This document shows positions 1 through 27,291 of a DNA stretch of 27,291 bases, piece after piece. The stretch's first letter is position 1; the number at the start of each line of letters is the position of its first letter. Where the stretch lies: positions 64,001 to 91,291 of IMG/VR virus record IMGVR_UViG_3300031994_000051. One strand, given 5' to 3'. The stretch is from a virus. Its lineage: Duplodnaviria > Heunggongvirae > Uroviricota > Caudoviricetes. The notes beneath the pieces are model-generated. The model worked only from the letters and a program-made list of their open reading frames with translations. It was not told the DNA's origin and did not search any database. Position numbers and translations under genes: made by a program.

Positions 1-73
1 CCCAGATTTTATCGCGGAAAATTTCCCAGAATTTTTCCCAGAATTTTTCTCGAAAAATTTTTCTGGAATTTTC

Positions 74-104
74 TTGGATCGTATTGATATTTTTCGTATC
101 TTTG
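74..104 (+). promoter_or_regulatory. Bacteroidota sigma-A-type promoter
   Basis: TTG 74-76, 20-nt spacer, TATCTTTG 97-104 (TAnnTTTG -7 consensus); no ORF before the next promoter. Confidence 0.85.
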
Positions 105-167
105 CACCGTCAAACAACAAACAGAAAGGATATTTGGAAGATACGAAAAAAAAAAACAGAAAAAAGC

Positions 168-198
168 TTGACACGTGTCGATATTTTCCGTATCTTTG
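168..198 (+). promoter_or_regulatory. Bacteroidota sigma-A-type promoter
   Basis: TTG-N20-TATCTTTG upstream of ORF 246. Confidence 0.85.
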
Positions 199-245
199 CA
201 GTGTGATTCAAAAACAAAGTATTAACCTATAAAAAACTTACAACT

Positions 246-515
246 ATGACACGGAGAAAAAACTTACTGTCGACTGAGGACGAGATAATCGTCACGGACA
301 AGATCAACAACGAGATTTACCTTACTGGGAAATTCATGGACGGGGAAGCCGATCTGAAAGACGAGAACGGAAACCCAGTCAAGATGAAATACCCAAAGTA
401 TTCTGAACTTACTGGTGAGCAGATAGAGGAAATCGAGTATTTTTGCGATCGATCGCTCATTGAGTACCAACAGGTTGCAATGGTTTTCGGGGAAGTTTTC
501 CCGACATCTTGTTAA
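246..515 (+). CDS. hypothetical protein (89 aa)
   Basis: ATG after A-rich leader directly downstream of promoter. Confidence 0.85.
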   Translation: MTRRKNLLSTEDEIIVTDKINNEIYLTGKFMDGEADLKDENGNPVKMKYPKYSELTGEQIEEIEYFCDRSLIEYQQVAMVFGEVFPTSC

Positions 516-547
516 GTATAACAATCAAAAAAGGAAAGGACAATACA

Positions 548-1201
548 ATGACACATTTCCGTACATACTGCATAGGAGACTACGACGAGAACGACCTTTG
601 CGAGAAGTTCAGCGAGTTCACGACAGTGCCACCTTATGCCGATGGCAATGTCTGTGGAGAGGACATCATGCAATTTATTGATTTTTACACAAGTGGAAAA
701 AATACAAATTGTATTAATGGAGACATCAATGTTGCACATAAACTTGGGCCAAGATCCCGTAAACTGTTTGCAGAATGGACCGATGCGAAATCCAATGGCG
801 ACACCGATCGAATGAACGCAATCGTCAAGGAATCGATCGACACTGTGTTCAAGGAGCTTTACAAAGCGTTCGGCTATGACTGGAACCATAACAAATGGAA
901 ATTCAACGATCAGGGTGTGCTGGAGAAATGGAGTACACGCAATCCCAACACTGTCTTCGACTACTATCAGGAGATCGATCAGACAACTCTCGGCGATATG
1001 GTGGATCCAGATCTTCGCATAGCCGAATCATGCGGGTTCTTCAACGGCCCAGAGAACACTTACACGAAGTTTGACTGGGTTGGATGGTTCGGAATGTCGG
1101 AAAGGGAAGTTGACAACGAAACGGCGATCGACCTTGTAAGAAAGGCGATCGAGGGACTGCCCCCAGACACACCAGTCTACACATTCGACTGCCACATTTA
1201 A
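548..1201 (+). CDS. hypothetical phage protein (217 aa)
   Basis: Start moved to ATG 548 after A-rich leader; acidic protein; followed by terminator. Confidence 0.85.
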   Translation: MTHFRTYCIGDYDENDLCEKFSEFTTVPPYADGNVCGEDIMQFIDFYTSGKNTNCINGDINVAHKLGPRSRKLFAEWTDAKSNGDTDRMNAIVKESIDTVFKELYKAFGYDWNHNKWKFNDQGVLEKWSTRNPNTVFDYYQEIDQTTLGDMVDPDLRIAESCGFFNGPENTYTKFDWVGWFGMSEREVDNETAIDLVRKAIEGLPPDTPVYTFDCHI

Positions 1202-1240
1202 CACGACTGTTTTCCATAGTCTTTATATTGCTCATTTTTG

Positions 1241-1278
1241 CCCGATCGATCACATCCCGTGACCGATCGGGTTTTTTA
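1241..1278 (+). terminator. intrinsic terminator
   Basis: CCCGATCG...CGATCGGG stem followed by T7. Confidence 0.85.
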
Positions 1279-1331
1279 TGCGACATGCACGGAGATCGTT
1301 CTTCGGGAAGGAAGTCTTCGGCCCCCAGATC

Positions 1332-1346
1332 GATCCCAATGGGATC
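1332..1346. repeat. 15-bp palindrome, variant (GATCCCAATGGGATC)
   Basis: 7-bp arms, central A. Confidence 0.8.
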
Positions 1347-1434
1347 CCTTTGCCGTGGCATCTCCAAGGTCAGGTTATCCTCACCCATTCCCATCCTGAA
1401 GAACGGATGTTAAAGGGGACTCTGTCCTGAAAAG

Positions 1435-1449
1435 GATCCCACTGGGATC
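1435..1449. repeat. 15-bp palindrome GATCCCACTGGGATC
   Basis: Exact copy between terminator and promoter. Confidence 0.95.
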
Positions 1450-1512
1450 GATTCTGTGCGGATGACATCCGACGGGTTTCTGAACCAGAATAAAATTTTT
1501 TTCGGAAAACAC

Positions 1513-1543
1513 TTGACATGTATTGATATTTTCCGTATCTTTG
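1513..1543 (+). promoter_or_regulatory. Bacteroidota sigma-A-type promoter
   Basis: TTG-N20-TATCTTTG. Confidence 0.85.
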
Positions 1544-1588
1544 CACCGTCAATTCAAAAGAAGTACAAACATATAAGACAAAAGAACT

Positions 1589-1945
1589 ATGGAAGACAAT
1601 CTGACTAAAATTGTGCCATACGGTCCGATCGATTTACACGACAATTTCACGATCAACCACATCAAGATCGAAGTGAAATATTGGGATCACAGGATCAAGG
1701 TCGACATCACACCTATCATGATCAACGATATATCATACAGTGTCCATTACGACGGAAAGCAAGAGCATCAGGGGTTCTTCGTGAACGTACTGCAATGTTC
1801 GAGAAAGTCGAACAAAAAGATGGATCTGATCGCACGCGCACTCTGGCCTTACACCGATCGAATCGTCGAGCTTTTCGGACAAGGGAAGTTCGCAGAAATC
1901 ACCAACATTATCACAGCACTCGTTAAAGACTTAAACCTTAAATAA
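1589..1945 (+). CDS. hypothetical protein (118 aa)
   Basis: ORF directly downstream of promoter. Confidence 0.85.
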   Translation: MEDNLTKIVPYGPIDLHDNFTINHIKIEVKYWDHRIKVDITPIMINDISYSVHYDGKQEHQGFFVNVLQCSRKSNKKMDLIARALWPYTDRIVELFGQGKFAEITNIITALVKDLNLK

Positions 1946-1946
1946 A

Positions 1947-2213
1947 ATGTTAGACATAGAAAGAATAATGGAGAAGATTGGCCCGCAATTGACGATCGGA
2001 GACAAGCGTACCGTCATGATCGTCCTTGATGCAGTCAACGATCAGCTTTCGGAAACGCGCACAAATGAGGATATGTTCTGCATCTATAACAAAAGCGGCA
2101 TGAGAATGTTCCAGTACGGAACAGGATCGTGGTGCCACATGAACAGGACACTGAAGAAAGCCGAGTCCGACTATCCAGACGCAGGGTTCTATGTTGGAGA
2201 AATTGACGGCTAA
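1947..2213 (+). CDS. hypothetical protein (88 aa)
   Basis: Starts 1 nt after upstream stop; followed by terminator. Confidence 0.8.
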   Translation: MLDIERIMEKIGPQLTIGDKRTVMIVLDAVNDQLSETRTNEDMFCIYNKSGMRMFQYGTGSWCHMNRTLKKAESDYPDAGFYVGEIDG

Positions 2214-2240
2214 TCCAAGAAATCGGCAGAACTCCATTCA

Positions 2241-2280
2241 GCGATCGATCACGATAATGTGATCGATCGCTTTTCTTTTT
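2241..2280 (+). terminator. intrinsic terminator
   Basis: Perfect 12-bp stem GCGATCGATCAC/GTGATCGATCGC then TTTTCTTTTT. Confidence 0.9.
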
Positions 2281-2323
2281 GTCAAAAACCTGAGAAAACC
2301 AATGGCGTGCTGGCGTTGGTTAG

Positions 2324-2338
2324 GATCCCACTGGGATC
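2324..2338. repeat. 15-bp palindrome GATCCCACTGGGATC
   Basis: Exact copy. Confidence 0.95.
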
Positions 2339-2439
2339 GATCTGGACGGATCCGTCTTCAAAAGTATCCTTCTGATTTTCAGCAAATTAATTTCCAGAAA
2401 TTTTTTTGAAACTTTTTTGAAAAATTTTCGGAAAAAAGC

Positions 2440-2469
2440 TTGCCAGTTCGGGAATTTTTCGTATCTTTG
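2440..2469 (+). promoter_or_regulatory. Bacteroidota sigma-A-type promoter
   Basis: TTG-N19-TATCTTTG. Confidence 0.8.
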
Positions 2470-2515
2470 CATCGTCAAACAAAGAAAAAGACATTAACCA
2501 ATAAAAGAAAACACT

Positions 2516-3346
2516 ATGGAAAATTACAAGAAAGCATTGGAACAGGTAGGGATCGCCTATTTAGGAGGGTTGAAACACTCGGCAAAGATGATGAAGTCGT
2601 TCAAGAAGAAGGTTGCCACGTATTGCATATACCTTGCGCCTGCCGATCTTGCTGGACGGACTGCAAAGGGTACGCGGATCAACGTATGCCCGAAATCGCA
2701 GCACTGTAAAGCGTTGTGCCTGAACTCGTCTGGCCACAACAAGGCCGACATCCTCCACAGGGGGATCAAGCAATCGACCATCAACCAGTGCAGGATCAGG
2801 AAGACCCGCCTGTTCTACAACGATCGTAACCTGTTCATGGAGATCATGATACACGAGATCGAGAGGAGCCGCAAGTATGCGGAGAGTCACGGAATGGAGT
2901 TCTCGATCCGAATCAACGGAACGAGCGATCTGTCCCCAGAGCTGTTCCGCTACAACGGAAAGAACATACTGGATATGTACCCAGACGTTCAGTTCTACGA
3001 TTATACCAAGGTTTTCAGCCGTACAAAGCTGCAAGGTCTTTATCCAAACTATGACATAACATTCAGCTTCGACGGGTACAACTGGGAAGATTGTGAAACC
3101 TACCTGAACCGTGGCGGGAAGGTGGCGATCGTATTCGACTCGGAAACCATGCCCAAGACCTACAAGGGGTTCAAGGTGATCGACGCAAACGGATATGATA
3201 TGCGCTACATGGATCCTAAGGGTTGCATCATGGGTCTGGAGTTCCATCCGATAGCCATAGGCGGGAAGGTCTGTCACGCCAAGGAAATCGACGATCCCTT
3301 CATCGTGAAAACCGAAAACAACCCAGACGTGGATTTCGGCCTGTAA
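2516..3346 (+). CDS. phage Cys-cluster protein, GP88-like / radical-SAM-like (276 aa)
   Basis: Motifs YLAP, CPKSQHCKALCL (CX5CX3C), RINGTSD, FYDYTK resemble a widespread phage family; ORF certain, family tentative. Confidence 0.6.
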   Translation: MENYKKALEQVGIAYLGGLKHSAKMMKSFKKKVATYCIYLAPADLAGRTAKGTRINVCPKSQHCKALCLNSSGHNKADILHRGIKQSTINQCRIRKTRLFYNDRNLFMEIMIHEIERSRKYAESHGMEFSIRINGTSDLSPELFRYNGKNILDMYPDVQFYDYTKVFSRTKLQGLYPNYDITFSFDGYNWEDCETYLNRGGKVAIVFDSETMPKTYKGFKVIDANGYDMRYMDPKGCIMGLEFHPIAIGGKVCHAKEIDDPFIVKTENNPDVDFGL

Positions 3347-3368
3347 CGGGGGATAAAAACGGAAACGC

Positions 3369-3405
3369 GGGCGATCGGTCACATTGTGATCGGTCGCCCT
3401 TTTTG
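3369..3405 (+). terminator. intrinsic terminator
   Basis: 14-bp stem (with G-U pairs) GGGCGATCGGTCAC/GTGATCGGTCGCCC plus T tract. Confidence 0.85.
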
Positions 3406-3465
3406 TTTTTTCATGGAACTGGATCGATCGGACGAAGGAGATAGCGGATAGCGGAAAGCTGTATG

Positions 3466-3480
3466 GATCCCACTGGGATC
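3466..3480. repeat. 15-bp palindrome GATCCCACTGGGATC
   Basis: Exact copy; extends to 17 bp with flanking G/C. Confidence 0.95.
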
Positions 3481-3576
3481 CTGACTGGACGGATGGAACC
3501 TTTCTCTGGGTTTTCTTCCAGATTTTTCCCGAAAAAAGATCGAGAAAAATTCCAGAAAATTTTTTCAAGAATTTTC

Positions 3577-3607
3577 TTGGATCGTATTGATATTTTTCGT
3601 ATCTTTG
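3577..3607 (+). promoter_or_regulatory. Bacteroidota sigma-A-type promoter
   Basis: TTG-N20-TATCTTTG. Confidence 0.85.
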
Positions 3608-3661
3608 CATCGTCAAATAAAAACAGAGATATTAACCAATAAAAAGAAAGGAAAACAAACC

Positions 3662-3949
3662 ATGGGAAAAAAGATTATCAGAGCAAACGACGCCGACAAC
3701 TGCGAATCGATCATGATTACATTAACACGGGAAAAATACCCGATCGCCTTCAAAGCTAAGTTAGAAGAGCTTATGGAAGAAGGCGCGTTTGAAACGGAAG
3801 ACGAAGCGATCGACTGGATCGAGTCCAACCCGATCGAATTGGAAATCTATTATGAAAAGGGGTATGGCCTTTTCGCCGTGGAATCCGAAGCCGTGGAGAG
3901 CAACGGGACATATTCCCCCTACACAAAATCCGAGATTGTTTGCGATTAA
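3662..3949 (+). CDS. hypothetical acidic protein (95 aa)
   Basis: Start moved to ATG 3662 downstream of promoter. Confidence 0.85.
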   Translation: MGKKIIRANDADNCESIMITLTREKYPIAFKAKLEELMEEGAFETEDEAIDWIESNPIELEIYYEKGYGLFAVESEAVESNGTYSPYTKSEIVCD

Positions 3950-3964
3950 GAAAGGAGAAATGTC

Positions 3965-4360
3965 ATGGGTTACAGATTACATGTGGTAAAACGACAGGAA
4001 CGGTTCGGGGACATCGAGGCGTTCAACTGGAAAAACAACGAGTTCGCGGATCTTCTCACAACGATCGGCTGCGACATCTGCGGTGACGAGCCATACGATC
4101 GATTCGAGTGCCTGAAGTCCGAATTCAGGAAAGCGATCGGCATCGTCAAGCTCTATTCAGAGAAAGACAGTCTGACGGAAGAAGACCTTTCCGCGACAGG
4201 GATCGATCCAGGCTGTTTTGACATCGACGACATCAATGAAATTCTATCAAAAACAAAGGACGAACTTGGGTACACCCCGACAGAGCTTGTCAGGGTCATG
4301 GAGCAGTTCCTTTCGGAATCCGATCCAGATGGTGACTATATCATTTTCGTCGCTTGGTAA
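3965..4360 (+). CDS. hypothetical acidic protein (131 aa)
   Basis: Second ORF of the operon. Confidence 0.85.
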   Translation: MGYRLHVVKRQERFGDIEAFNWKNNEFADLLTTIGCDICGDEPYDRFECLKSEFRKAIGIVKLYSEKDSLTEEDLSATGIDPGCFDIDDINEILSKTKDELGYTPTELVRVMEQFLSESDPDGDYIIFVAW

Positions 4361-4392
4361 AAACGGAAAAAATAACTTAAAACAAGACAATC

Positions 4393-4731
4393 ATGGAAAC
4401 GCAAAGACCTTATACACATGAAGAGTACAAAATCGCCCTTAACGCCACGCACGACTTCCACACAAGATGCTACGAGACCGTAAGGGAATATCTCGAAGGC
4501 CATGGGATGATCAAGATCGATCCAGACCAGTACGATGAATGGAGATTCGATTTCCTTGAATACGATGAAACCATGACAGTGCATGAGATTTGTTTAGACG
4601 ATGACATATATTTTGTGTGCTACACATACAACGGAGATCAATATATTGTCGATTGGTGCCAGATCAACCACGACATGGTAATCACGGAGATGATCATGGA
4701 TCTCGTCTATAAACTTTCGGAAGAAGAATAA
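4393..4731 (+). CDS. hypothetical acidic protein (112 aa)
   Basis: Third ORF, followed by terminator. Confidence 0.85.
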   Translation: METQRPYTHEEYKIALNATHDFHTRCYETVREYLEGHGMIKIDPDQYDEWRFDFLEYDETMTVHEICLDDDIYFVCYTYNGDQYIVDWCQINHDMVITEMIMDLVYKLSEEE

Positions 4732-4760
4732 ACACTTTTGACACGCTTACTTTTCGCTTG

Positions 4761-4800
4761 GGGCGATCGATTACAATCTGGATCGATCGCCCTTCTTTTT
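4761..4800 (+). terminator. intrinsic terminator
   Basis: GGGCGATCGAT/ATCGATCGCCC stem plus TTCTTTTT. Confidence 0.85.
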
Positions 4801-4847
4801 TACCTTGATTTTGGAAATGAACTTCAGCGGGTATCCGCATGGCGATC

Positions 4848-4862
4848 GATCCCAGTGGGATC
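4848..4862. repeat. 15-bp palindrome GATCCCAGTGGGATC
   Basis: Exact copy, opposite orientation of the central base. Confidence 0.95.
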
Positions 4863-4929
4863 TTTTCCCAGAGATTATTTCCCAGAATTTTTCTTGGAAT
4901 TTTTCTTGAAATTTTTTTCGGGATTTTTC

Positions 4930-4960
4930 TTGGATCGTATTGATATTTTTCGTATCTTTG
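4930..4960 (+). promoter_or_regulatory. Bacteroidota sigma-A-type promoter
   Basis: TTG-N20-TATCTTTG. Confidence 0.85.
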
Positions 4961-5007
4961 CAGCGTCAAAACAAAACAGGAATATTAACCATTAAAAAGA
5001 AAAGACT

Positions 5008-5775
5008 ATGCCAAACTATGTTAGAGCAAGAATCACGGTCAGTGGTGACCAGAAGATGATCGATCAGCTTGTCGATCACGTCAAAACCACATTCACAGAA
5101 AACGGGAAGGAAACCGTAATCCCGTTCGATTTCAACAAGATTATCCCTATGCCAGAGTCTTTGGACATCATTGACAGCTCAGACGGGCATAACGGGATGA
5201 AATATCTCCTTCTGAACGGCAAGTCGAGCGTCGGGGTCACAGGGGATGATTTCGCGTTCCTTCAGGAAATGGACAAGATCAGGAAAACAGATCCGAAAAG
5301 GTTCGACGATATGATCGATCTTGGTCGAAAGTACCTGCATAATATCGCGGAACACGGATTTCCGACTTGGTACGGATGGAGAGCCAAGAACTGGGGGACA
5401 AAATGGAATGCGTGTGACACCCAGACGGACGGTAACGGTTGTTTCGAGTTCGACACGGCATGGGCTTTCCCTTTCCCAGTGATCGAGAAGCTTGCCGAAA
5501 TGTATCCAGACCTTGACATCGACTTCATATATGCCGACGAGGACTGCGGATGCAATACGGGGGAAGGGACATTCTCTGGTGGCGAGATCGTCGAAGAGGA
5601 ATACCCAGATCCATGCACTGAAAGCGCATACGAAATCTATGACGAGTGCTGGCAGAATGAGTTCTTCTACAAGGATCCAGACGGGGAATGGAGATGGCAC
5701 GACGACATCAAGGAAGACTCAGACGGCATAGAGGAAAGCACAGACCCGATCAGCGGTGTTCTCGAAACCGAATAG
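5008..5775 (+). CDS. YubB-like / DUF1281_C ferredoxin-like domain protein (255 aa)
   Basis: Characteristic motifs MPNYV, FDFNKIIPMP, WRAKNWGTKWNA, FDTAWAFP, IYADED. Confidence 0.8.
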   Translation: MPNYVRARITVSGDQKMIDQLVDHVKTTFTENGKETVIPFDFNKIIPMPESLDIIDSSDGHNGMKYLLLNGKSSVGVTGDDFAFLQEMDKIRKTDPKRFDDMIDLGRKYLHNIAEHGFPTWYGWRAKNWGTKWNACDTQTDGNGCFEFDTAWAFPFPVIEKLAEMYPDLDIDFIYADEDCGCNTGEGTFSGGEIVEEEYPDPCTESAYEIYDECWQNEFFYKDPDGEWRWHDDIKEDSDGIEESTDPISGVLETE

Positions 5776-5804
5776 CTGAACTGGCCTGACTGCCCAGCAA
5801 GGCA

Positions 5805-5850
5805 AAGGCGATCGATCCTTATAATGTGATCGATCGCCTTTTTTCTTTTT
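5805..5850 (+). terminator. intrinsic terminator
   Basis: 13-bp stem AAGGCGATCGATC/GATCGATCGCCTT plus T tract. Confidence 0.9.
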
Positions 5851-5897
5851 TGTTCATAAGACGCTTGCATGATGATATGATGCGGGGGCCTTCGATC

Positions 5898-5912
5898 GAT
5901 CCCACTGGGATC
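5898..5912. repeat. 15-bp palindrome GATCCCACTGGGATC
   Basis: Exact copy. Confidence 0.95.
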
Positions 5913-5990
5913 CTTTCCACTGGAAAACTTTTGGGTTTTATTCTGGAATTTCTTTCAATAAATATCAAAGAAATTTTTATGGATTTTTTC

Positions 5991-6021
5991 TTGGATGTTT
6001 CTCGGAAAATCCGTATCTTTG
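5991..6021 (+). promoter_or_regulatory. Bacteroidota sigma-A-type promoter
   Basis: TTG-N20-TATCTTTG. Confidence 0.8.
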
Positions 6022-6042
6022 CAAAATCAAAAAAGTTACATT

Positions 6043-6429
6043 ATGGGACAGACATATAGCGTGAGCATGAACGTAAGGTTCAGGGACGAGGAAAAGGCTA
6101 AGGAGGCCTTGCAGAGGAAAATAGGAATGGCAAAGGTTGAACACACAAATTACAACCTCGAGCATTTCAAGGAACTTGGAATAGGGACGGACACATTGCC
6201 CGATCTCATGGGGATATTCTTCGGGGGATGGAAAGGTGTCCTTAACTCAACACCAGCTGGATACCTGTATGCCGACTTCGATGCGAGCTATGGTTGGGAA
6301 AGTGTGATGATGGAGGCTTTCGAGGATATATCACCGTTCCTTGAGGATGGATCGTTCATCAAGATCTGGCCAGACTATGGATGCGACTACGGCATTGTCG
6401 AGAACGGCACTTGCGTTTGGAGGGAATGA
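6043..6429 (+). CDS. hypothetical protein (128 aa)
   Basis: Start moved to ATG 6043 downstream of promoter. Confidence 0.85.
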   Translation: MGQTYSVSMNVRFRDEEKAKEALQRKIGMAKVEHTNYNLEHFKELGIGTDTLPDLMGIFFGGWKGVLNSTPAGYLYADFDASYGWESVMMEAFEDISPFLEDGSFIKIWPDYGCDYGIVENGTCVWRE

Positions 6430-6470
6430 ACTTGGAATAACAGTTATTGTTTATTATATTTTTCTTTTTT

Positions 6471-6508
6471 CTGGGCTTCCACTTGTCTTAGGGGGAGTCC
6501 AGTTTTTG
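6471..6508 (+). terminator. probable intrinsic terminator
   Basis: CTGGGCTTCC...GGAGTCCAG stem with G-U pairs, then TTTTT. Confidence 0.65.
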
Positions 6509-6576
6509 TTTGGATCGATCGGAGGTCAGCCATATCGGTTCCCGTTACTGGACAGCGTATGGCTGGGTCCGTCATG

Positions 6577-6591
6577 GATCCCACTTGGATC
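6577..6591. repeat. 15-bp palindrome, variant (GATCCCACTTGGATC)
   Basis: One mismatch; same position upstream of promoter. Confidence 0.8.
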
Positions 6592-6660
6592 GATCGTGCT
6601 GGGCGTCCACACTTAATCATGGGAACTTATCCGACACAGGAAATTTTTCTTTGGTTTTTC

Positions 6661-6691
6661 TTGGATCGTATTGATATTTTTCGTATCTTTG
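6661..6691 (+). promoter_or_regulatory. Bacteroidota sigma-A-type promoter
   Basis: TTG-N20-TATCTTTG. Confidence 0.85.
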
Positions 6692-6744
6692 CACCGTCAA
6701 TTCAAAACAGATACACTAACAACCATTAAAAAAGGGAACAAGAC

Positions 6745-20345: not shown

Positions 20346-20368
20346 GTTGTATAAGTTTTAGTTGATTT

Positions 20369-20848
20369 TTAAAACGTGTCAAGGTATTTCTGTAGCAATT
20401 TCCTTCTTTTCTCTGTCTTCGACTCTGGGGTTTCTGGAACGATATACATCATCCTTGCGGCGATCTCCCCTTTCCCGTCCTCGTAGTATCTGATCCCTTC
20501 AGGTATGATACACATGACCACCCTAGCATATGCTGGGCCGATCGATTTTTTCACTGATTGGTCTCTCGCGATTTCGTTCCATACTCGCATTGTGTCTTCG
20601 GAAGGCTTTTCCGTGAAAGCATGGATGAACCCCCTTCCTACATATAGAGTTCCGTGCCTGAAAGAAAGTTCCGTTTCCCCAAGTCCGATCAGTGGAACAT
20701 CCCCGCTAAGTTGGATTGGCCTGACACGATCTTTTATCACTGGTGTGTAGTGGAACCCAGCACTGTTCACGAACAGAATTTTCCACACTATTCTTTCACC
20801 CTTTGTGTATCTCGGCTCGGTAAAGCTACCTGTTGCGTATAAGCACAT
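20369..20848 (-). CDS. hypothetical phage protein (159 aa)
   Basis: Start moved to MCLYATG; GFIHAF and CIIPEGIRYY motifs. Confidence 0.82.
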   Translation of the reverse strand: MCLYATGSFTEPRYTKGERIVWKILFVNSAGFHYTPVIKDRVRPIQLSGDVPLIGLGETELSFRHGTLYVGRGFIHAFTEKPSEDTMRVWNEIARDQSVKKSIGPAYARVVMCIIPEGIRYYEDGKGEIAARMMYIVPETPESKTEKRRKLLQKYLDTF

Positions 20849-20883
20849 TTTATTTCTTGTTTTTGTTGTTCGATTTAATCCTT

Positions 20884-21183
20884 CTAACAAATATACTCTC
20901 CAGCATGGTTTCCTGACTTGAACACATGTGTCTGTGAAAGTTCCCTTGCAATTCCCTGTGCAACCCTATAGTCAACGATCGAGGGACAAAGCATGATATT
21001 GCTATGTTCTTTTATATACGTTTCGGCATCATTGTATGTGTCAAAACATAAGGCACGATCGATGTCATAAGTGAACTTCCTGTCTTGATAATCTGATCTG
21101 AAACAGACACTGCCACTTGGACAATGACAATCTATAATGAGATATTTCTTGTAAACTCTTTCTTGATCAAAAAAATTCTTCAT
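20884..21183 (-). CDS. hypothetical protein (99 aa)
   Basis: Start moved to ATG 21183 downstream of promoter. Confidence 0.8.
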   Translation of the reverse strand: MKNFFDQERVYKKYLIIDCHCPSGSVCFRSDYQDRKFTYDIDRALCFDTYNDAETYIKEHSNIMLCPSIVDYRVAQGIARELSQTHVFKSGNHAGEYIC

Positions 21184-21208
21184 TTCTATTTGTTTTTGAA
21201 ATTCGCTG

Positions 21209-21239
21209 CAAAGATACGGAAAATTTCTGGAATGTGCAA
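21209..21239 (-). promoter_or_regulatory. Bacteroidota sigma-A-type promoter
   Basis: TTG-N20-TATCTTTG on - strand. Confidence 0.85.
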
Positions 21240-21274
21240 GAAAAATCCGAATTATTTTTCTTTGTCTGGATAAA

Positions 21275-21314
21275 CAAAAAAACCGATCGATCCTTTTGTG
21301 AACGGATCGATCGG
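21275..21314 (-). terminator. intrinsic terminator of the tRNA transcript
   Basis: 11-bp stem CCGATCGATCC/GGATCGATCGG then T7 on - strand. Confidence 0.85.
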
Positions 21315-21354
21315 AAAACAAAACTAACCTATGGAATAAAACCCCTTGATTATG

Positions 21355-21425
21355 AGCGACTTATGAGACTCGAACTCACCTTTTCAGAGTGGAAATCTGA
21401 TGTCCTGCCACTGGACGAAAGTCGC
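21355..21425 (-). tRNA. tRNA-Gly (anticodon TCC), CCA not encoded
   Basis: Full cloverleaf: acceptor GCGACTT/AAGTCGC, D GTCC/GGAC, anticodon TCAGA-TTTCCAC-TCTGA, T arm GTGAG-TTCGAGT-CTCAT; Gly identity G1-C2-G3 and U73. Confidence 0.93.
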
Positions 21426-21429
21426 GTCT

Positions 21430-21525
21430 TTGTCAAACCAGCGGATCCGCTGCGGCGTGCCAGCCGTGGAAGGAGGTGTGCGGAACGGCTGGCGGGCCGA
21501 TTGCGTCTTCACCGCTGCTTGACAA
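21430..21525 (-). ncRNA. candidate ~96-nt hairpin RNA co-transcribed upstream of tRNA-Gly
   Basis: Ends pair (TTGTCAA/TTGACAA plus CAGCGG/CCGCTG); perfect inner 9-bp stem GCCAGCCGT/ACGGCTGGC with a 17-nt C-rich loop. Confidence 0.6.
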
Positions 21526-21527
21526 TG

Positions 21528-21558
21528 CAAATATACGGAAACTATCCGAAACTGGAAA
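21528..21558 (-). promoter_or_regulatory. variant promoter (TTTCCAG-N10-TTTCCGTATATTTG) driving hairpin RNA and tRNA
   Basis: TATATTTG at 21528-21535; same layout as 15734-15764. Confidence 0.78.
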
Positions 21559-21608
21559 GAGTTTTTGGAAAAATTTTTCTTGATGATGATAATTGTTTTG
21601 TGTTAGAA

Positions 21609-21623
21609 GATCCCAGTGGGATC
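21609..21623. repeat. 15-bp palindrome GATCCCAGTGGGATC
   Basis: Exact copy ~50 nt upstream of the - strand tRNA promoter. Confidence 0.95.
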
Positions 21624-21671
21624 TTTTTGTCACGCCACGCTATGAATATATTTTGTTTTGTGTTGGCTGAA

Positions 21672-21705
21672 ATAGAAAAGGGATCGATCAAAAATGATCG
21701 ATCCC
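21672..21705 (-). terminator. intrinsic terminator
   Basis: GGGATCGATCA/TGATCGATCCC stem, TTTTCT on - strand. Confidence 0.8.
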
Positions 21706-21728
21706 CCATTGTTTGTTAATTATGAATT

Positions 21729-21968
21729 TTATTCTTTGGATGTTTTTGAACTTGACTTAAACAGACATGTTCCTATGATATCCAGAACAAACATTATTCC
21801 TAATGCCTTCCATGTTGTTAGGACAGGTGCAGATGACCAGAAGATCGGTGCGATCCAGTTCCAGAGAAGAGATGCAACCCATCCTTCCAGTATTAGTAGT
21901 CCAGCGATAAGAGCGATTACAACGATGCATCCGATTGCAGACCAGTCGCGTCTAAATAATTCATTCAT
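21729..21968 (-). CDS. small membrane protein (79 aa)
   Basis: Two hydrophobic segments. Confidence 0.8.
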   Translation of the reverse strand: MNELFRRDWSAIGCIVVIALIAGLLILEGWVASLLWNWIAPIFWSSAPVLTTWKALGIMFVLDIIGTCLFKSSSKTSKE

Positions 21969-22201
21969 TTTTGTTTATTTTTATTGTTTATGATTAGGTT
22001 TATTCCATATGTTATAAAACCGATTGCCAACAGATATGGCAAAGGTTTCAATGGATCGATCTGTTTTATGTCTTGGCTAAACAAATATAATGTTGTTTGT
22101 AATAACACGATACATCCATTAGTTATCAGACATACCATGATTACAGCGAACAGATCTAGCGCATATTCTATCCATGATTTCTTAGTTTCTTTTCCACCCA
22201 T
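21965..22201 (-). CDS. small membrane protein (78 aa)
   Basis: Two hydrophobic segments; ATGA overlap. Confidence 0.75.
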   Translation of the reverse strand: MGGKETKKSWIEYALDLFAVIMVCLITNGCIVLLQTTLYLFSQDIKQIDPLKPLPYLLAIGFITYGINLIINNKNKQK

Positions 22202-22640
22202 CTCTCTGTTCCTCCTGTTTTGGCTGTTGAATTGATTTGATATTCTTGAAATGTTCTGCGTTAATCTGATTGATCTTAATCTTCAGGAACTCATCCCATG
22301 CCGTTTCTGGTTGTGGATCGATCGAAAGCAGTCTGCCTCTCCCAGTCTTCACGAGCCAGACAATCATCTCAACAAGGTTCTGCATAGGATCTGGTCCGTT
22401 GAATATAGGGCTGACGCCTTTGTACCATATCCTGTCGCCAGCGAATTGGGATGGCCTGTTGAAGTTGTCTGGTATTGAGTCTGGAAGCATTTTGGATAAC
22501 GCGAGTCCAGACCATGCTATACCGAATGAGTTCTCCGTGTCCGCAGATGAAGCTGGTATGTTCCATTCCTGCAGCATGCGTGCCTGTCTAGGTGTCGTGC
22601 GCATAGCTTTCAGCTTGTTTTCTGTCGTTTGGTCTGCCAT
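22182..22640 (-). CDS. hypothetical protein (152 aa)
   Basis: First ORF after promoter. Confidence 0.8.
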   Translation of the reverse strand: MADQTTENKLKAMRTTPRQARMLQEWNIPASSADTENSFGIAWSGLALSKMLPDSIPDNFNRPSQFAGDRIWYKGVSPIFNGPDPMQNLVEMIVWLVKTGRGRLLSIDPQPETAWDEFLKIKINQINAEHFKNIKSIQQPKQEEQRDGWKRN

Positions 22641-22665
22641 TTTATGTTGTTTTTGAATTTCGCGG

Positions 22666-22696
22666 CAAAGATACGTAAACTTTTTGGATTATGCAA
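22666..22696 (-). promoter_or_regulatory. Bacteroidota sigma-A-type promoter
   Basis: TTG-N20-TATCTTTG on - strand. Confidence 0.82.
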
Positions 22697-22945
22697 GTAA
22701 AATCAGAAAAATGTTTCCATAGTGATTTATCTGTGGATTATTTTCTGAAAGAAGCCGAAAACGTGGCCGTACAGACGTTTTTATGTTCTGGACGATTAAT
22801 GTATCTGGTTTTTTACGGAAAACATCTCTATGGTCACGTTTTGTGTTTTGATGGATTGAATACTCCTGAAATTTTTCGGGGGACGATCCTCACCAGCTTC
22901 CTTGGATTGTCGGATCGCCCCCTTCCGTCTGCACAACGGTATGGC

Positions 22946-23089
22946 TTATCGTTTGTATCGATCGATCCTGTGGAGTTTCCTTCTGATTTTGATGTCTTCG
23001 TTTCTGCGAGACAGTGCATTCATCCTTTCCTTAGTTGCTGTGAACATCATCGGATAAAGTGAGCAGTAGTCATTATTAATTTCATTCAT
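22946..23089 (-). CDS. small basic hypothetical protein (47 aa, MNEINNDYCSLYPMMF...)
   Basis: Translated by hand; starts 17 nt after upstream stop. Confidence 0.45.
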   Translation of the reverse strand: MNEINNDYCSLYPMMFTATKERMNALSRRNEDIKIRRKLHRIDRYKR

Positions 23090-23106
23090 GTCTTGATGTT
23101 TTATTG

Positions 23107-23496
23107 TTAAACATAGCATTCGATCATCTTGTTTAGTTCGTCTGACATGCCAAGGATTCTTTCCAAGTGTGTCTTGATCATGTTTGATCGTTCCAATCTT
23201 TTATTTTCTGGATCGACGGACAAAATGTATGAATCAGAATCATTCCATTCTATTCTGTCAATCAGATCATCGAAATCTTTTCTTCTTTCTGATGGGAACA
23301 TCACTCCATATGTGATTATTTTATCTAGGGTGATTTCAGTATCAGGTTTTGCCCTACAGTAAGAGAGTAAGACGTCTTTGTCTTGTGCCATTTCTAGGAC
23401 GGCTTTAACCGTGTTAACGAAATATGGTTGGAACCAGTAGACGTCGTATTGGCCTTTGTCGAACGGCTCTGGAATGATATTGTTATCTTCGTTCAT
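23107..23496 (-). CDS. hypothetical protein (129 aa)
   Basis: Operon packing. Confidence 0.82.
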   Translation of the reverse strand: MNEDNNIIPEPFDKGQYDVYWFQPYFVNTVKAVLEMAQDKDVLLSYCRAKPDTEITLDKIITYGVMFPSERRKDFDDLIDRIEWNDSDSYILSVDPENKRLERSNMIKTHLERILGMSDELNKMIECYV

Positions 23497-23513
23497 TTAA
23501 TGTTCATTTAATT

Positions 23514-23768
23514 TTATTTTTCCACGAATTTGTCTATGTTGTCTAGAGTAAGTTCCTTGTTGTCGTTGATGAAATATTCGACAGCATCTCTTGAAATCTT
23601 TTGAAACTGTTCCCAGTTAAGCCATTCAAGTTTGAATGTTGGCCACCCTTGTTGTTCATATCTCATCAAACCAATGTCATCGATAGGTTTCCACGTAGTC
23701 TCGTTAAGGTAGGCGAGACAAAGATACCAAAGGTGATCTGAAACAATTTTGTCGTTAATAGCTTTCAT
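23514..23768 (-). CDS. hypothetical protein (84 aa)
   Basis: Start moved to ATG 23768. Confidence 0.8.
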   Translation of the reverse strand: MKAINDKIVSDHLWYLCLAYLNETTWKPIDDIGLMRYEQQGWPTFKLEWLNWEQFQKISRDAVEYFINDNKELTLDNIDKFVEK

Positions 23769-23770
23769 TT

Positions 23771-23911
23771 TTACCAACCTTGATTAATTTGTGATATTGA
23801 TTCTAATCTATCTTTTATTCGTTTGATCATGTCGATCATTTCCTATTCTGTGTGAACCGACTCAAGGAAAACATTGAGTTCATCGACGATCCATTTTATT
23901 CTTGTTTGCAT
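23771..23911 (-). pseudogene. 46-codon ORF interrupted by an in-frame TAG at codon 23 (pseudogene or readthrough)
   Basis: MQTRIKWIVDELNVFLESVHTE*EMIDMIKRIKDRLESISQINQGW; fills the gap between neighbours. Confidence 0.45.
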
Positions 23912-24075
23912 CTTTTCTTATCCAAGTTTATGTTCCAGTAAAGGTCTGCCTGCAAAAGCTTTTGCCCTATTCTCAATAGAACGTCTGCTGCATTTTTCTG
24001 TGGTACTCCGTTTTCTATCAGGATTTTCTCTGCTTCGATAACGGACTCATCTTTAATGTTTGCGAAAATAGCCAT
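23896..24075 (-). CDS. hypothetical protein (59 aa)
   Basis: Start moved to ATG 24075 downstream of promoter. Confidence 0.75.
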   Translation of the reverse strand: MAIFANIKDESVIEAEKILIENGVPQKNAADVLLRIGQKLLQADLYWNINLDKKRCKQE

Positions 24076-24099
24076 ATATGATAGTTTGTTTTTTCGATG

Positions 24100-24130
24100 C
24101 AAAGATACGGAAAAGTTTTTGATTGTACAA
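24100..24130 (-). promoter_or_regulatory. Bacteroidota sigma-A-type promoter
   Basis: TTG-N20-TATCTTTG on - strand. Confidence 0.85.
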
Positions 24131-24139
24131 GAAAAATCT

Positions 24140-24199
24140 TTATTTTTTCGTTTCTGCTGCCATAGTCTCTACGATTCTGTATTTCTTTGATAAGTCCAT
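24140..24199 (-). CDS. micro-ORF (19 aa, MDLSKKYRIVETMAAETKK)
   Basis: Small ORF with a typical leader between two promoters. Confidence 0.45.
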   Translation of the reverse strand: MDLSKKYRIVETMAAETKK

Positions 24200-24227
24200 A
24201 GTTTATATGTTTTGATGTTTAACGCTG

Positions 24228-24257
24228 CAAAGATACGAAAAAATCTGGAATCGGCAA
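24228..24257 (-). promoter_or_regulatory. Bacteroidota sigma-A-type promoter
   Basis: TTG-N19-TATCTTTG on - strand. Confidence 0.8.
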
Positions 24258-24311
24258 GTATTTTTTCCAGATTTTTTCAAAAATATAATAACATATTGAA
24301 ATACAATAAGT

Positions 24312-24917
24312 TCAAAAGTTCAGATCAAATCGTTCATTCACTTTTTCTATCATTTCTTCTGTCAATGTTATTCCTTTTAATTTCACTCTGCAAGGTGGAA
24401 GTCTAGCGAACATAGGATCGTCGGTGAAAATGTGCTTTATATTTCTGGCTCCATATTTTCGAAGAACGGCCTCTACTGTTTTCTCGCCTCCCCTGTCTGC
24501 GGCTACTGCCATAACCTTTCCTATAACAAGAAAAATATAGATTGATCTCTTTTTTGTAGTTCCCTCGTTTACGGAAAACGACGAAGAGTCAGACACTGGG
24601 GTTATATCCCATCCAAGAGCGTTCAACCTAGCAGCCTCCTTCATGAAAACCTTACCGTGTTCGGAGTTGTCCTTGAGTCTGAACTGATCTATCTTCTGAT
24701 GTATCATCTCATGAAGCATTGTCTGGCGATACGATCGATCGTCCCTGTCATAGACATCGGTTATTCGTATCTCGTTTCCGTCTATATTTCTGAAATACAG
24801 CCCCAAAGCGTCCATTGTGTGGACTACTTTGAATTTTGGTGTGTCCAGTTGTCCGTCGAAATATTGTTCGTTCAGTTCCCTGAACATTTCAGACATTTGT
24901 GATTCAGTTATTTTCAT
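24312..24917 (-). CDS. SprT-like zinc metalloprotease (201 aa)
   Basis: FRELNEQYFDGQL...TMLHEMIHQ...HGKVFMKEAARLN: HExxH plus downstream H, typical SprT layout. Confidence 0.88.
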   Translation of the reverse strand: MKITESQMSEMFRELNEQYFDGQLDTPKFKVVHTMDALGLYFRNIDGNEIRITDVYDRDDRSYRQTMLHEMIHQKIDQFRLKDNSEHGKVFMKEAARLNALGWDITPVSDSSSFSVNEGTTKKRSIYIFLVIGKVMAVAADRGGEKTVEAVLRKYGARNIKHIFTDDPMFARLPPCRVKLKGITLTEEMIEKVNERFDLNF

Positions 24918-24921
24918 GATG

Positions 24922-24953
24922 CAAATATACGGAATATTTTTGTAAATCGACAA
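24922..24953 (-). promoter_or_regulatory. sigma-A-type promoter 4 nt from the SprT start codon
   Basis: TTG-N21-TATATTTG-CATC-ATG. Confidence 0.72.
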
Positions 24954-24982
24954 AAGTTTGCATTTTGTTCTATATTAGGTTG

Positions 24983-24997
24983 GATCTCACTGGGATC
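24983..24997. repeat. 15-bp palindrome, variant (GATCTCACTGGGATC)
   Basis: One mismatch; between terminator and promoter on the - arm. Confidence 0.8.
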
Positions 24998-25040
24998 GAT
25001 CTAGGTGATAACATCAGAGCAAGATCAGCATATGTCTGGA

Positions 25041-25080
25041 CAAAAAGAAAAAGCGATCGGTCAATGTTGATCGATCGCTT
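25041..25080 (-). terminator. intrinsic terminator
   Basis: AAGCGATCG...CGATCGCTT stem, TTTCTTTTT on - strand. Confidence 0.85.
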
Positions 25081-25105
25081 CATCGAAAGTAAGCATGTCA
25101 AAAGT

Positions 25106-25696
25106 TTATTTTATTCGTATCGCATGGAACGCATAGATAAATCCTTGGAACTCTGGCGGAAATTCACAGTTGTCGAAATATTCGTGCGTATCGATGATTT
25201 CCTTCCACTTTCCGATGTATTTTCCGTTTTTATATGGCCTGAAACCTCCTGTTTTCCCAGCGTTCTCTGGATGATGCTCTATAGGATACATCCAGATGAT
25301 GTAAGTCCTTGTTGGATGATCCACGAAACCTTTCAGATATTCGATCGCTTGATTTGGATCGTCGCATAATCCATATGGGTTTCCGATATAATTCAGGTTC
25401 CTGTTAGGAAATCCGTTTTTATCGTGCCCACCGTCATCTGAATAATAAGTACATTCGTCAACGCACCACCAGAAATGTTGTTTCAGATCCTTTGTCTGAT
25501 CGTATGCCCAAGGCTGGAAATTGTTCCATCCTATATAGACACCTGGTTTTGGATTATGTTTCAAAGGATCTTTCAACCATGGAATGTACGCATCTTCGAT
25601 GCTGAAGTTTTCCAATTCTTGATCTATGATAATTTCATCCCAGACGGATTCGATTTCCTTATAGAGTTCTGGGGATATTGTAAGTGTTCCTAACAT
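25106..25696 (-). CDS. hypothetical aromatic-rich phage protein (196 aa)
   Basis: Long ORF followed by terminator. Confidence 0.85.
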   Translation of the reverse strand: MLGTLTISPELYKEIESVWDEIIIDQELENFSIEDAYIPWLKDPLKHNPKPGVYIGWNNFQPWAYDQTKDLKQHFWWCVDECTYYSDDGGHDKNGFPNRNLNYIGNPYGLCDDPNQAIEYLKGFVDHPTRTYIIWMYPIEHHPENAGKTGGFRPYKNGKYIGKWKEIIDTHEYFDNCEFPPEFQGFIYAFHAIRIK

Positions 25697-25725
25697 TGTA
25701 TTACTTATTTTATGGATTAAACTTA

Positions 25726-26571
25726 TTATTTCACAACTCCAAGATAGATTTCGGACAGTCCATAAAGTTCTGCTTGTGTGATTGGCTCTGTTCTGTTTAT
25801 ATCAAATCCGTGCCATTGTGCTTTAGTGAGCCAATGGGGATCGGTATCAGGATAAATCACCCAATCTTCCTCACTATAGTCGAATGCCCATTTGGTTCCA
25901 TATTTTTGGATCATTCTTTTCCTTGCATCCGATTCGGTCTTGGCGACGATCCTGACATAGTTCTTTTTGTTCTTTTCGTCTCCGCAGCCGAAAGTGAAGT
26001 ACCAGTTCTTATACTCTTTTTCCTTCAAAGAAGATATTATTTGTTGAACACCATCTAAAACCTTTTCTTGGTTTTTCTTTGATTGTTTCCCGAAGAATTT
26101 TTCAGCGTGTTTTCTCATGAAAGTATATGTGATTGATCTCCAATCCAATGTAGAGAATTTTCCTCCAGTATATCTTGGAAGACCTTTTCCATATCGTGGC
26201 ATATTAAGTTCGATCTCATCATTCGAAAGCATCATCATCACGTTGAGAACACTAAAGACGATCGCTTCGTCTCTTGTATATTCGCATAGTCTTATATAAC
26301 GATTAACATCCTCTTCGAATCGAAGAGGTGAGCAAAGCCAACGACCGCATTTTCTGTCTTCCTCGTCAAGGTGTTGATGAATTTTATCAAGAGCGATCAA
26401 CATGTAATGGGAAATCTCGGAATCGCTTGGATGCTCAGAGATATAGTATTGGTCATCTAGTCTAATCAATCTGGCTACAAGATCCATGAAGTTTTTCTCT
26501 GTTGTAAGACCATACCATCCTTTAGACATAAGTACTACAGAGTTGAAAGGGAAATTCTTTATCTTTTTCAT
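25726..26571 (-). CDS. hypothetical protein (281 aa), probably two domains
   Basis: C-terminal WYFTFG...YVRIVA...ARKRMIQKYGTKWAFDY looks like a small phage domain. Confidence 0.85.
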   Translation of the reverse strand: MKKIKNFPFNSVVLMSKGWYGLTTEKNFMDLVARLIRLDDQYYISEHPSDSEISHYMLIALDKIHQHLDEEDRKCGRWLCSPLRFEEDVNRYIRLCEYTRDEAIVFSVLNVMMMLSNDEIELNMPRYGKGLPRYTGGKFSTLDWRSITYTFMRKHAEKFFGKQSKKNQEKVLDGVQQIISSLKEKEYKNWYFTFGCGDEKNKKNYVRIVAKTESDARKRMIQKYGTKWAFDYSEEDWVIYPDTDPHWLTKAQWHGFDINRTEPITQAELYGLSEIYLGVVK

Positions 26572-26601
26572 ATCAGGTTAGTTTATGTTTGTTTGATGGC
26601 G

Positions 26602-26631
26602 CAAAGATACGAAAAATATTTGAATTGACAA
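26602..26631 (-). promoter_or_regulatory. Bacteroidota sigma-A-type promoter
   Basis: TTG-N19-TATCTTTG on - strand. Confidence 0.82.
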
Positions 26632-26665
26632 GTGTTTTGCGAAAATTTTTCCTTATATACAAAAC

Positions 26666-26872
26666 TTATTCCATGGGATCCACAACCACAACGACTTTGT
26701 CAGGATTCGTTCCATCGATAACCCTGTTATGTACTTCATAAGAGACTTTTATTTCATTTTTGTCACCATAATGTAAAATTACACAGTCCCCCTTTTGTGG
26801 GATCAAACGCTTGTTCCAATTGGGCCATTGCTTTATGTAATTTCCATCTAAATCTATGAATTCGATTGTCAT
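26666..26872 (-). CDS. hypothetical protein (68 aa)
   Basis: ATGA overlap with nicotinamidase stop. Confidence 0.78.
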   Translation of the reverse strand: MTIEFIDLDGNYIKQWPNWNKRLIPQKGDCVILHYGDKNEIKVSYEVHNRVIDGTNPDKVVVVVDPME

Positions 26873-27291
26873 ATCAATTGTACATTTTTGATTGTTTCAC
26901 AATAATCAAAAAGTTTCTTATCGCTTTCATCTACAGCGGCACAGAAATCTGTTAATACGGATATTCTTACGTTTGGAAAAGTTTCATGTAAATCCTTTAC
27001 CGTTTCATAAACGCAATAGTCTGTTGCAATACCACATACATCTATCATTTCTATGTTGTTATCAACTATGAAACATTTTAATATTTTTCCAGCGATTTCG
27101 TTTTGAAACACGCTGAACTCTTCCTTGTCTGGTTCATTTCCCTTACATAATGCAAGTAAAGACATTCCACCAGAACGTAATGATATCAATAGAGATTCCA
27201 GATCTGGATAGACTTTACATCCTTGAGTTCCTTTCACGCAATGAGGTTCAAAAGGACCTCCAAATTCTTTGAATGAGCAATGTTTTTTTGG
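26869..27291 (-). CDS. pncA: nicotinamidase/pyrazinamidase (isochorismatase family), 5'-truncated by window edge
   Basis: Frame stays open to the window end: PKKHCSFKEFGGPFEPHCVKGTQG...KG..EEFSVF...VCGIATDYCV; catalytic Lys and Cys motifs and the metal-binding His region visible. Confidence 0.88.
   Translation of the reverse strand, partial: PKKHCSFKEFGGPFEPHCVKGTQGCKVYPDLESLLISLRSGGMSLLALCKGNEPDKEEFSVFQNEIAGKILKCFIVDNNIEMIDVCGIATDYCVYETVKDLHETFPNVRISVLTDFCAAVDESDKKLFDYCETIKNVQLI

Follow-up and report, generated by a model that had tools for sequence, protein, structure and literature searches.

The stretch of DNA analyzed here, the window, consists of 27,291 nucleotides and covers positions 64,001–91,291, the final 27.3 kb, of the 91,291-bp IMG/VR virus record IMGVR_UViG_3300031994_000051, whose completeness is estimated at 57%. 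The window probably belongs to a region of accessory genes that spans at least 47 kb in the genome of a large rumen phage with a Bacteroidota host. An earlier note on this DNA had read it as a Bacteroidota-phage array that shuffles accessory genes in a manner analogous to the promoter/stem-loop cassettes (PeSLs) of T4-like phages, and the chimeric junctions and the permuted gene order found among relatives support this reading. The sequence comparisons described below make it probable that the array is a PeSL-like system of regulatory cassettes in which recombination between repeats adds, removes, and reorders genes. The record under study is referred to as G000, and G001 and L094–L105 designate the records or contigs of its relatives. 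Gene calls in the window are simple open reading frame (ORF) picks.

Promoters were identified by the sequence TAnnTTTGC plus TTG about 20 nt upstream. The window has 25 of them, 13 on the + strand (73..14958) and 12 on the − strand (15732..26633). The earlier note had arrived at the same number and had called the promoters near-identical, a description that holds for the −7 module and for a + arm subfamily and fails over the full 34 nt of the core CTTGGATCGTATTGATATTTTTCGTATCTTTGCA. This core is exact at 73, 3576, 4929, 6660, 10236, and 11691, where it had been reported, and has two mismatches at 8745; shuffled sequences gave 0 matches. Among the 25 promoters, the number of mismatches to the core is two or fewer in 7, 3–6 in 4, 7–10 in 4, and more than 10 in the other 10. 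The 18-nt −7 module was matched 23 times in the window with up to three mismatches, against 0.05 expected. Common to all 25 promoters are TTTxCGTATCTTTGCA and, with two mismatches at most, the 12-nt module CGTATCTTTGCA; most of them have CTTG at −33, and the layout is CTTG-N20-TAtcTTTGCA. Upstream of the promoters, the T-runs recur with a phase of about 12 nt; the distances between them peak at 12, 24–25, 37, and 49. On the whole contig, the array spans from about 45 kb to the end (about 47 kb) and has about 42 promoters. Promoters of the array type (CTTG at −33, TATCTTTGCA) were found only beyond about 36 kb of the contig. The region 1–36 kb, where packaging, chaperone, and other large genes were scanned, has a different class (TTTG, about 19 nt, TTCCGTATATTTGCA) with a spacer that is not conserved. 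Both classes fit TAnnTTTG, the −7 box specific to Bacteroidetes (PMC10309648). The repeated sequences match the consensus of the host primary sigma factor and have an A/T-rich upstream region, and on this basis they are predicted promoters.

Ten of the 25 promoters have upstream of them, in this order, an intrinsic terminator, a 15-bp palindrome (GATCCCASTGGGATC), and T-runs. They are those at 97, 2462, 3600, 4953, 6014, 6684, 8769, and 10260 on the + strand and at 21535 and 24929 on the − strand. The earlier note had counted at least nine such gaps and had named two mirrored examples in the − arm, which are the two listed here. The terminator of the gap at promoter 97 sits just before the start of the window. 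In these gaps, a hairpin (dG −17 to −26) with a T tail is located at −160 to −270, the palindrome at about −54 to −172, and the T-runs at −120 to −30. Of the 11 hairpins that end in a T tail, 10 are within this dG range; the terminator stems are composed of CGATCG units. Repeat modules reach 113 nt at 82–83% identity, and the terminators and the palindrome flanks are also repeat families.

Junctions and gene order among relatives

The GP88-like protein encoded in the window has thousands of homologues, and their contigs gave further loci. Identity to the G000 protein is 97% in L094, 81% in L095–L097, 78% in L100–L102, and 75–76% in L098/L099 and L103–L105. Another relative, the 220-kb record G001, was reached via the terminase (70% identity). 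The sources of the relatives are rumen and gut metagenomes, and two promoter versions divide them into two clades.

L094 and G000 are collinear over 54.1–77.9 kb of the contig, with a mean nucleotide identity of 84% and 15 junctions. In window coordinates, the segments found only in G000 are −7291..−6815, −4472..−3553, −1848..−907, 123..528 (g01 and its promoter), 3666..3948 (g10), and 6032..7680 (g15 and g17); among those found only in L094 is a 142-aa gene flanked by promoters on both sides. The aligned blocks share an overlap of 12–89 nt at 6 of the 9 simple indels, i.e., there is a direct repeat at both ends. The L094 promoter at 2524 (alignment A2) matches the left G000 promoter in its upstream half and the right one in its downstream half and leader, and the same left/right chimera is found at the L094 promoter at 13219 (alignment A3), whose G000 partners are the promoters at 5990 and 7701. 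Alignment A4 is the reverse case, where the G000 promoter at 8769 combines the two L094 promoters on either side of the L094-only gene. At junction E/F the parental switch occurs within the leader, and at junction C/D the sequences are joined exactly at two palindrome copies. The single-gene indels are flanked by ribosome-binding-site repeats, GAAAGGA for g01 and GAAAGGA..ATGGG for g10. In clade II, which has the other promoter sequence, L103 shows chimeric promoters with respect to L098 in alignments A5 and A7. Each arrangement at A7, the GP88 junction, was confirmed by independent assemblies (L098=L099, L103=L105). A 1977-bp clade II indel (alignment A6) is not clearly chimeric.

As the earlier note had anticipated, indel ends between close relatives fall at repeats. 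Of the 30 G000/L094 alignment ends, 15 are in a promoter zone (−60..+55) or a palindrome (with a margin of 5 nt), compared to 13.7% of all positions (P=2e-6), and chimeric promoters are present at four G000/L094 junctions as well as in clade II. The note had also proposed the promoter identity of about 35 bp as the recombination substrate. Promoters probably do take this place, and the length has to be revised, since the usable homology is 40–113 nt and not about 35 nt alone. The ungapped comparison of promoters to orthologues and paralogues gave mixed results, with some orthologues being the best match. Two L094 promoters are 91% alike, yet only 72–74% like their positional orthologues, a likeness that hints at homogenization.

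The G001 array has about 44 promoters at 163–216 kb with a consensus of its own (TTAACAnnnTTTAAC, TTTGG, TAaCTTTGCA). G000 and G001 have about 20 homologous array genes, with their order and orientation fully scrambled; outside of the array the two records have almost nothing in common beyond the large terminase. The gene families around GP88 are permuted across G000, L095, L098/L103, and G001. The earlier note had named a fixed gene order among relatives as the outcome that would refute shuffling; since the same families are permuted around GP88, the order is not fixed.

The large terminase gene is truncated by the start of the G000 record, which also encodes an exonuclease, an ATPase, and DnaK. 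The latter is the 635-aa protein that was tried for placing the phage, and it was uninformative. An ENA contig of independent origin, 173,474 bp long, encodes an identical GP88-like protein amid the same gene layout. The phage genome must therefore have 173 kb or more, and the G000 arrangement is no assembly accident. A megablast search of the INPHARED phages with the window and a search of IMG/VR with the exact 34-nt core pattern gave no match. With a degenerate promoter pattern, 57 singletons were returned from unrelated contigs; they were rejected as ordinary Bacteroidota promoters and not arrays. The palindrome plus GATC pattern gave 3 singletons only, and related-locus searches that started from g17 or from an alignment of two GP88 sequences added no further loci.

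Proposed mechanism and alternatives

In the mechanism that we propose, a cassette would begin with phased T-runs. A strong Bacteroidota-type promoter (CTTG at −33, 20 nt, TAtcTTTG at −7), its start region conserved, would come next, and behind it a short leader rich in A and one to six small genes, mostly without known function. Cassettes of the + arm would end with an intrinsic terminator and then the 15-bp palindrome. The primary role of the repeated sequences would be regulatory, i.e., strong and insulated transcription of each unit, most likely by the host RNA polymerase soon after infection. Because these regulatory sequences recur as 40–113-nt repeats, homologous recombination between them could delete, insert, replace, and reorder whole cassettes leaving the genes unbroken, and the exchange could take place within one genome or between co-infecting relatives. 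Shorter repeats, such as the palindrome and the ribosome-binding site, may act likewise at a smaller scale. In this mechanism, we infer the activity and timing of the promoters, the machinery of recombination, and the circular intermediates.

Several observations weigh against this mechanism. When non-coding positions only are considered, 9 of 18 ends fall in the zones defined above, compared to 37% of the positions (P=0.18), an enrichment that is not significant. Position alone is thus not decisive, and it is the chimeric junctions that carry the argument. About half of the indels are inside operons, at ribosome-binding-site microhomology or at promoter-less gene boundaries. A second assembly of L094 was sought and only the same metagenome contig was found; since L094 is a single contig, a mis-join at repeats is possible for the G000/L094 pair. 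The − arm is mostly devoid of terminators and palindromes, and therefore the full ordered arrangement describes the + arm. Finally, the arrays of relatives include sigma-70-family genes, so that the host sigma factor is not the sole candidate reader of the promoters.

These sigma-70-family genes, of 286–287 aa, are located inside the arrays of L098 (353–1213), L103–L105 (2728–3588 in L103), and G001. The G001 genes are at 165304 and 100694, and the sizes among relatives are 286–287 aa and 251 aa. A phage-encoded sigma factor, rather than the host sigma-A, could then read the array promoters, with the promoter sequences of each clade tracking the factor. This alternative concerns the host-read step only. 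It agrees with the presence of the gene within several arrays, of a second one in G001, and of a distinct promoter consensus in each of the two clades. However, the L103 sigma gene is itself behind an array-type promoter, so that this promoter, at least, has to be read by the host polymerase. Furthermore, both clade versions fit the host-type TTTG/TAnnTTTG layout, and no sigma gene was found in the 91 kb of G000, a record that is 57% complete. A phage sigma factor as the reader is considered unlikely, and early transcription of the array by the host machinery is the likelier reading.

A second alternative is that the repeats are regulatory only and that selection for a strong consensus promoter keeps them alike. 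In this case, the indels would arise by illegitimate recombination or in other ways and survive between genes, and they would seem to be bounded by promoters since a promoter is present in most gaps. The −7 and −33 boxes fit a functional consensus, and the statistics for non-coding positions and the many indels at promoter-less gene boundaries speak for this explanation. It does not account well for the promoters at the junctions, which are clean chimeras with a left-to-right parental switch within the shared core, or for the overlap of 12–89 nt between aligned blocks at 11 of 18 simple indels. In addition, conservation of the spacer and flanks exceeds the sigma contacts, and 75–113-nt modules, terminators, and palindrome flanks recur. 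We regard a purely regulatory role as rather improbable.

The 15-bp palindrome, allowing up to two mismatches, has 14 matches in the window compared to 0.05 expected. In the form GATCC-N5-GGATC there are 67 copies in the G000 array and 1 in the 44-kb core; relatives have 22 (L094), 6 (L095), or 0 (L100, L098, L103, and G001). The palindrome is array-specific and lineage-specific. Perfect palindromes around any central base account for 32 of the 67 copies, and compensatory variants are few among the 35 non-perfect centers (GATTC twice, TAATA once), a scarcity that discriminates neither an RNA hairpin nor a protein site. The interpretation favored on these sequences is that it may serve as a protein site or be just one more recombination repeat. 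A third alternative assigns it a larger part, as the site of a dedicated site-specific system, similar to integrons or to baculovirus homologous regions (hrs), that would mobilize cassettes or dock a phage protein, with homology between promoters being secondary. The contrast in copy number between array and core, the presence of the palindrome in nearly every + arm gap, and a 919-bp indel that joins exactly at two copies would fit such a system. Nevertheless, its absence from L100, L098, L103, and G001, whose arrays still shuffle, means that it is not needed for shuffling. Most junctions are in promoters, the spacing between palindrome and promoter is variable (about 54 to 172 nt), and no tyrosine or serine recombinase (PF00589, PF00239) was found in the 91-kb, 57% complete G000 record. 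This alternative is very unlikely.

Between 40 and 80 kb of the contig, GATC is 4–5-fold and GATCGATC about 100-fold over expectation. It is conceivable, at a low probability, that the palindrome together with this enrichment constitutes a dedicated system for docking a protein or for being read through methylation, one that controls or catalyzes cassette exchange or array-wide transcription. If true, the phage would carry a cassette platform equipped with dedicated sites, beyond passive homology. Separately, the −33 box CTTGGATCG contains GATC, and G001 encodes a Dam-like D12 methyltransferase (110230–111045).

That the indels are metagenome assembly artefacts, produced by de Bruijn paths skipping or swapping at repeated k-mers, would agree with the coincidence of junctions with 30–90-nt repeats and with the single assembly of L094, but it is extremely improbable, since the G000 layout recurs in the independent 173-kb contig, the clade II arrangements at the GP88 junction were each found in two or three independent assemblies, and skips cannot produce replacements by unrelated genes or a permuted order at 70–80% protein identity.

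Features along the window

The + arm starts with a promoter with the exact core (73..106) that has no ORF ahead of the next promoter (167..200), which is of the CTTGACA subtype and drives g01 and g02. The former (246..515, +; 89 aa, no family) is missing from L094 along with this second promoter. Two palindromes (1332..1346, with 1 mismatch, and 1435..1449) precede another CTTGACA promoter (1512..1545). An intrinsic terminator with a GATCGATC-rich 14-pair stem (2240..2271) and a palindrome (2324..2338) are followed by the promoter (2438..2471) of the GP88-like gene (PF17338; 2516..3346, +), the anchor used for finding relatives. The next cassette has a terminator (3369..3399), a palindrome (3466..3480), a promoter with the exact core (3576..3609), and g10 (3662..3949, +; 95 aa, no family), which is missing from L094 with the junction in the repeated GAAAGGA..ATGGG. 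Then come a terminator (4760..4793), a palindrome within a 54-nt repeated module (4848..4862), an exact-core promoter (4929..4962), and a DUF1281_C (Api92-like) gene (5008..5775, +). The terminator at 5807..5838 overlaps a 40-nt repeat (5808–5847) that is 85% like 2241–2280, and it is followed by a palindrome (5898..5912).

The promoters at 5990..6023 and 7701..7734, left and right partners of the L094 chimeric junction, bound the deletion of the g15 and g17 cassettes (5995..7692, +), which are missing from L094. Within this segment there are a weaker terminator-like hairpin (6471..6502, dG −17.7), a palindrome with 1 mismatch (6577..6591), and the exact-core promoter of g17 (6660..6693). The g17 product (6745–7692, +), of 315 aa, has no family, and its homologues (38–49% identity) were found only in unrelated elements, beside an integrase or in a phage, about 93 kb in size, that also has Bro-N/ANT, RadC, and amidoligase genes. 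Further along are a terminator (8513..8541), a palindrome within a 54-nt repeated module (8597..8611), and the promoter that is a chimera of the two L094 promoters (8745..8778). A terminator (10042..10076) and a palindrome (10135..10149) precede an exact-core promoter (10236..10269), and another such promoter is at 11691..11724. An 18-pair terminator (13338..13380) closes the + arm, with a palindrome at its end (13432..13446). All promoters and terminators described so far are on the + strand.

Beyond this point, two more palindromes (14802..14816 and 14850..14864) precede a + promoter that faces an ORF-poor stretch (14925..14958). The first − promoter (15732..15765), with the TATATTTG −7 box and without CTTG, is followed by GC-rich non-coding sequence. 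These two convergent promoters flank about 0.8 kb of GC-rich DNA with tiny ORFs only, and Rfam gave no match in 14925–15765. In the − arm, the promoter at 16239..16272 belongs to a gene (15894–16214, −) whose 106-aa product is almost wholly one RyR domain (E 3e-40). Other − promoters are at 16692..16725 (CTTGACA subtype), 18180..18213, 18640..18673, 21207..21240, and 22664..22697. The − arm includes a 414-aa TnpB (OrfB_IS605 plus Cas12f-like TNB; 18764..20008, −), with no TnpA nearby, the 3′ end of which adjoins the promoter at 18640–18673, the expected place of the omega RNA. The only tRNA in the window, tRNA-Gly(TCC) (21354..21425, −), has a TATATTTG-type promoter upstream (21526..21559) with a leader of about 100 nt. 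A palindrome (21609..21623) and a − terminator (21680..21707) are upstream of this promoter, and another − terminator (21283..21314) has no palindrome after it. The − promoter at 24098..24131 is preceded by one at 24226..24259 that has merely a 19-codon ORF ahead of the next promoter. The SprT-like gene (24312..24917, −) has its promoter at 24920..24953, with a palindrome with 1 mismatch (24983..24997) and a − terminator (25052..25079) upstream, and the last − promoter is at 26600..26633. The two "empty slots" (73–200 and 24098–24259), each a full promoter followed by no ORF or by the 19-codon ORF, look like scars of cassette loss or gain.

Out of 40 window proteins scanned, 7 matched a Pfam family at or above the cutoff, and most products have no family. 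The matches were GP88, DUF1281_C, SprT-like, RyR, an isochorismatase-like fragment, and the two domains of the one TnpB; a HicA-like match was below its cutoff. A leader motif, TAAC(C/T)WDYAAAA, was found 32–33 nt after the −7 box and 16–29 nt before the ATG in 7 G000 cassettes (in the window, e.g., 220–235, 3628–3645, and 4981–4998) and, with the same geometry, in 8 G001 cassettes despite the different promoter sequences of the clades. The G+C content is 0.43–0.47 in the + arm (1–13400) and 0.35–0.40 in the − arm (16000–27291), and this contrast, together with that in terminators and palindromes, suggests separate histories of the two arms.

Related systems and meaning

The PeSL precedent invoked by the earlier note is documented as it had been stated. 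In T4-type phages, each genome carries about 50 copies of a repeated early promoter of the sigma-70-like kind; the DNA upstream of it is A/T-rich, and stem-loop terminators accompany it (Arbiol et al. 2010, PMC2839356; Comeau et al. 2014, PMC4122927). PeSLs are located in hyperplastic regions ahead of ORFans, deletions leave chimeric PeSLs, and minicircles were detected by PCR (PMC2839356, PMC4122927). The array resembles them in its dozens of repeated strong host-type promoters, A/T-rich upstream sequences, terminator stem-loops, variable regions, and genes without known function. By our own count, differential units are contiguous with a promoter repeat in 8 of 12 cases, compared to 10 of 14 reported for phi1/RB49 (PMC2839356, PMC4122927). 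Also as in PeSLs, a deletion leaves a single chimeric repeat (A2, A3, A4, A5, A7, and junctions C/D and E/F). At the sequence level, the array thus appears to have every PeSL property that was examined. There are also differences. The promoters are of the Bacteroidota type (CTTG/TTTG at −33, TAnnTTTG at −7) instead of sigma-70 −35/−10, and the host belongs to another phylum. The terminator is separate, 160–270 nt upstream, while in PeSLs it is interleaved with the promoter. The 15-bp palindrome and the extreme GATC/GATCGATC enrichment are additional, and the array is contiguous over at least 47 kb in opposed arms. The T4 capsid protein Gp23 (PF07068) had no match in the 91-kb G000 record or in G001, both about 60% complete, in a search whose control also matched nowhere.

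The host-takeover module of the Bacillus phage SPO1 groups small early genes together with numerous strong promoters of the host type and with terminators. Its phylum and promoter type are unlike those of the array, and we know of no description of shuffling through repeats for this module. Integrons likewise line up small accessory genes next to promoters, with a palindromic element repeated between the cassettes. They differ in that each cassette of the array has its own promoter rather than one common Pc promoter, the element is a 15-bp palindrome and not an attC site, the junctions are mostly in promoters, and the recombinase search described above found no integrase (PF00589/PF00239, 91-kb record, 57% complete). 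Baculovirus hrs are also palindromic repeats dispersed in a large viral genome, whereas the palindromes of the array are single per gap, lineage-specific, and at a variable distance from the promoters. We found no paper on such arrays in Bacteroidota phages in a search that was not exhaustive.

With these results, modular shuffling mediated by promoters and terminators would be extended from phages of the T4 type, whose hosts are Proteobacteria and cyanobacteria, to an unrelated lineage of Bacteroidota jumbo phages. The array would be a source of strong, compact, natural Bacteroidota promoters, leaders, and terminators, as predicted parts. The shuffling reading predicts that chimeric promoters and minicircles are present in rumen viromes, and it suggests that shuffling is a general route for large phages to turn over accessory genes that probably serve in host takeover or anti-defence.

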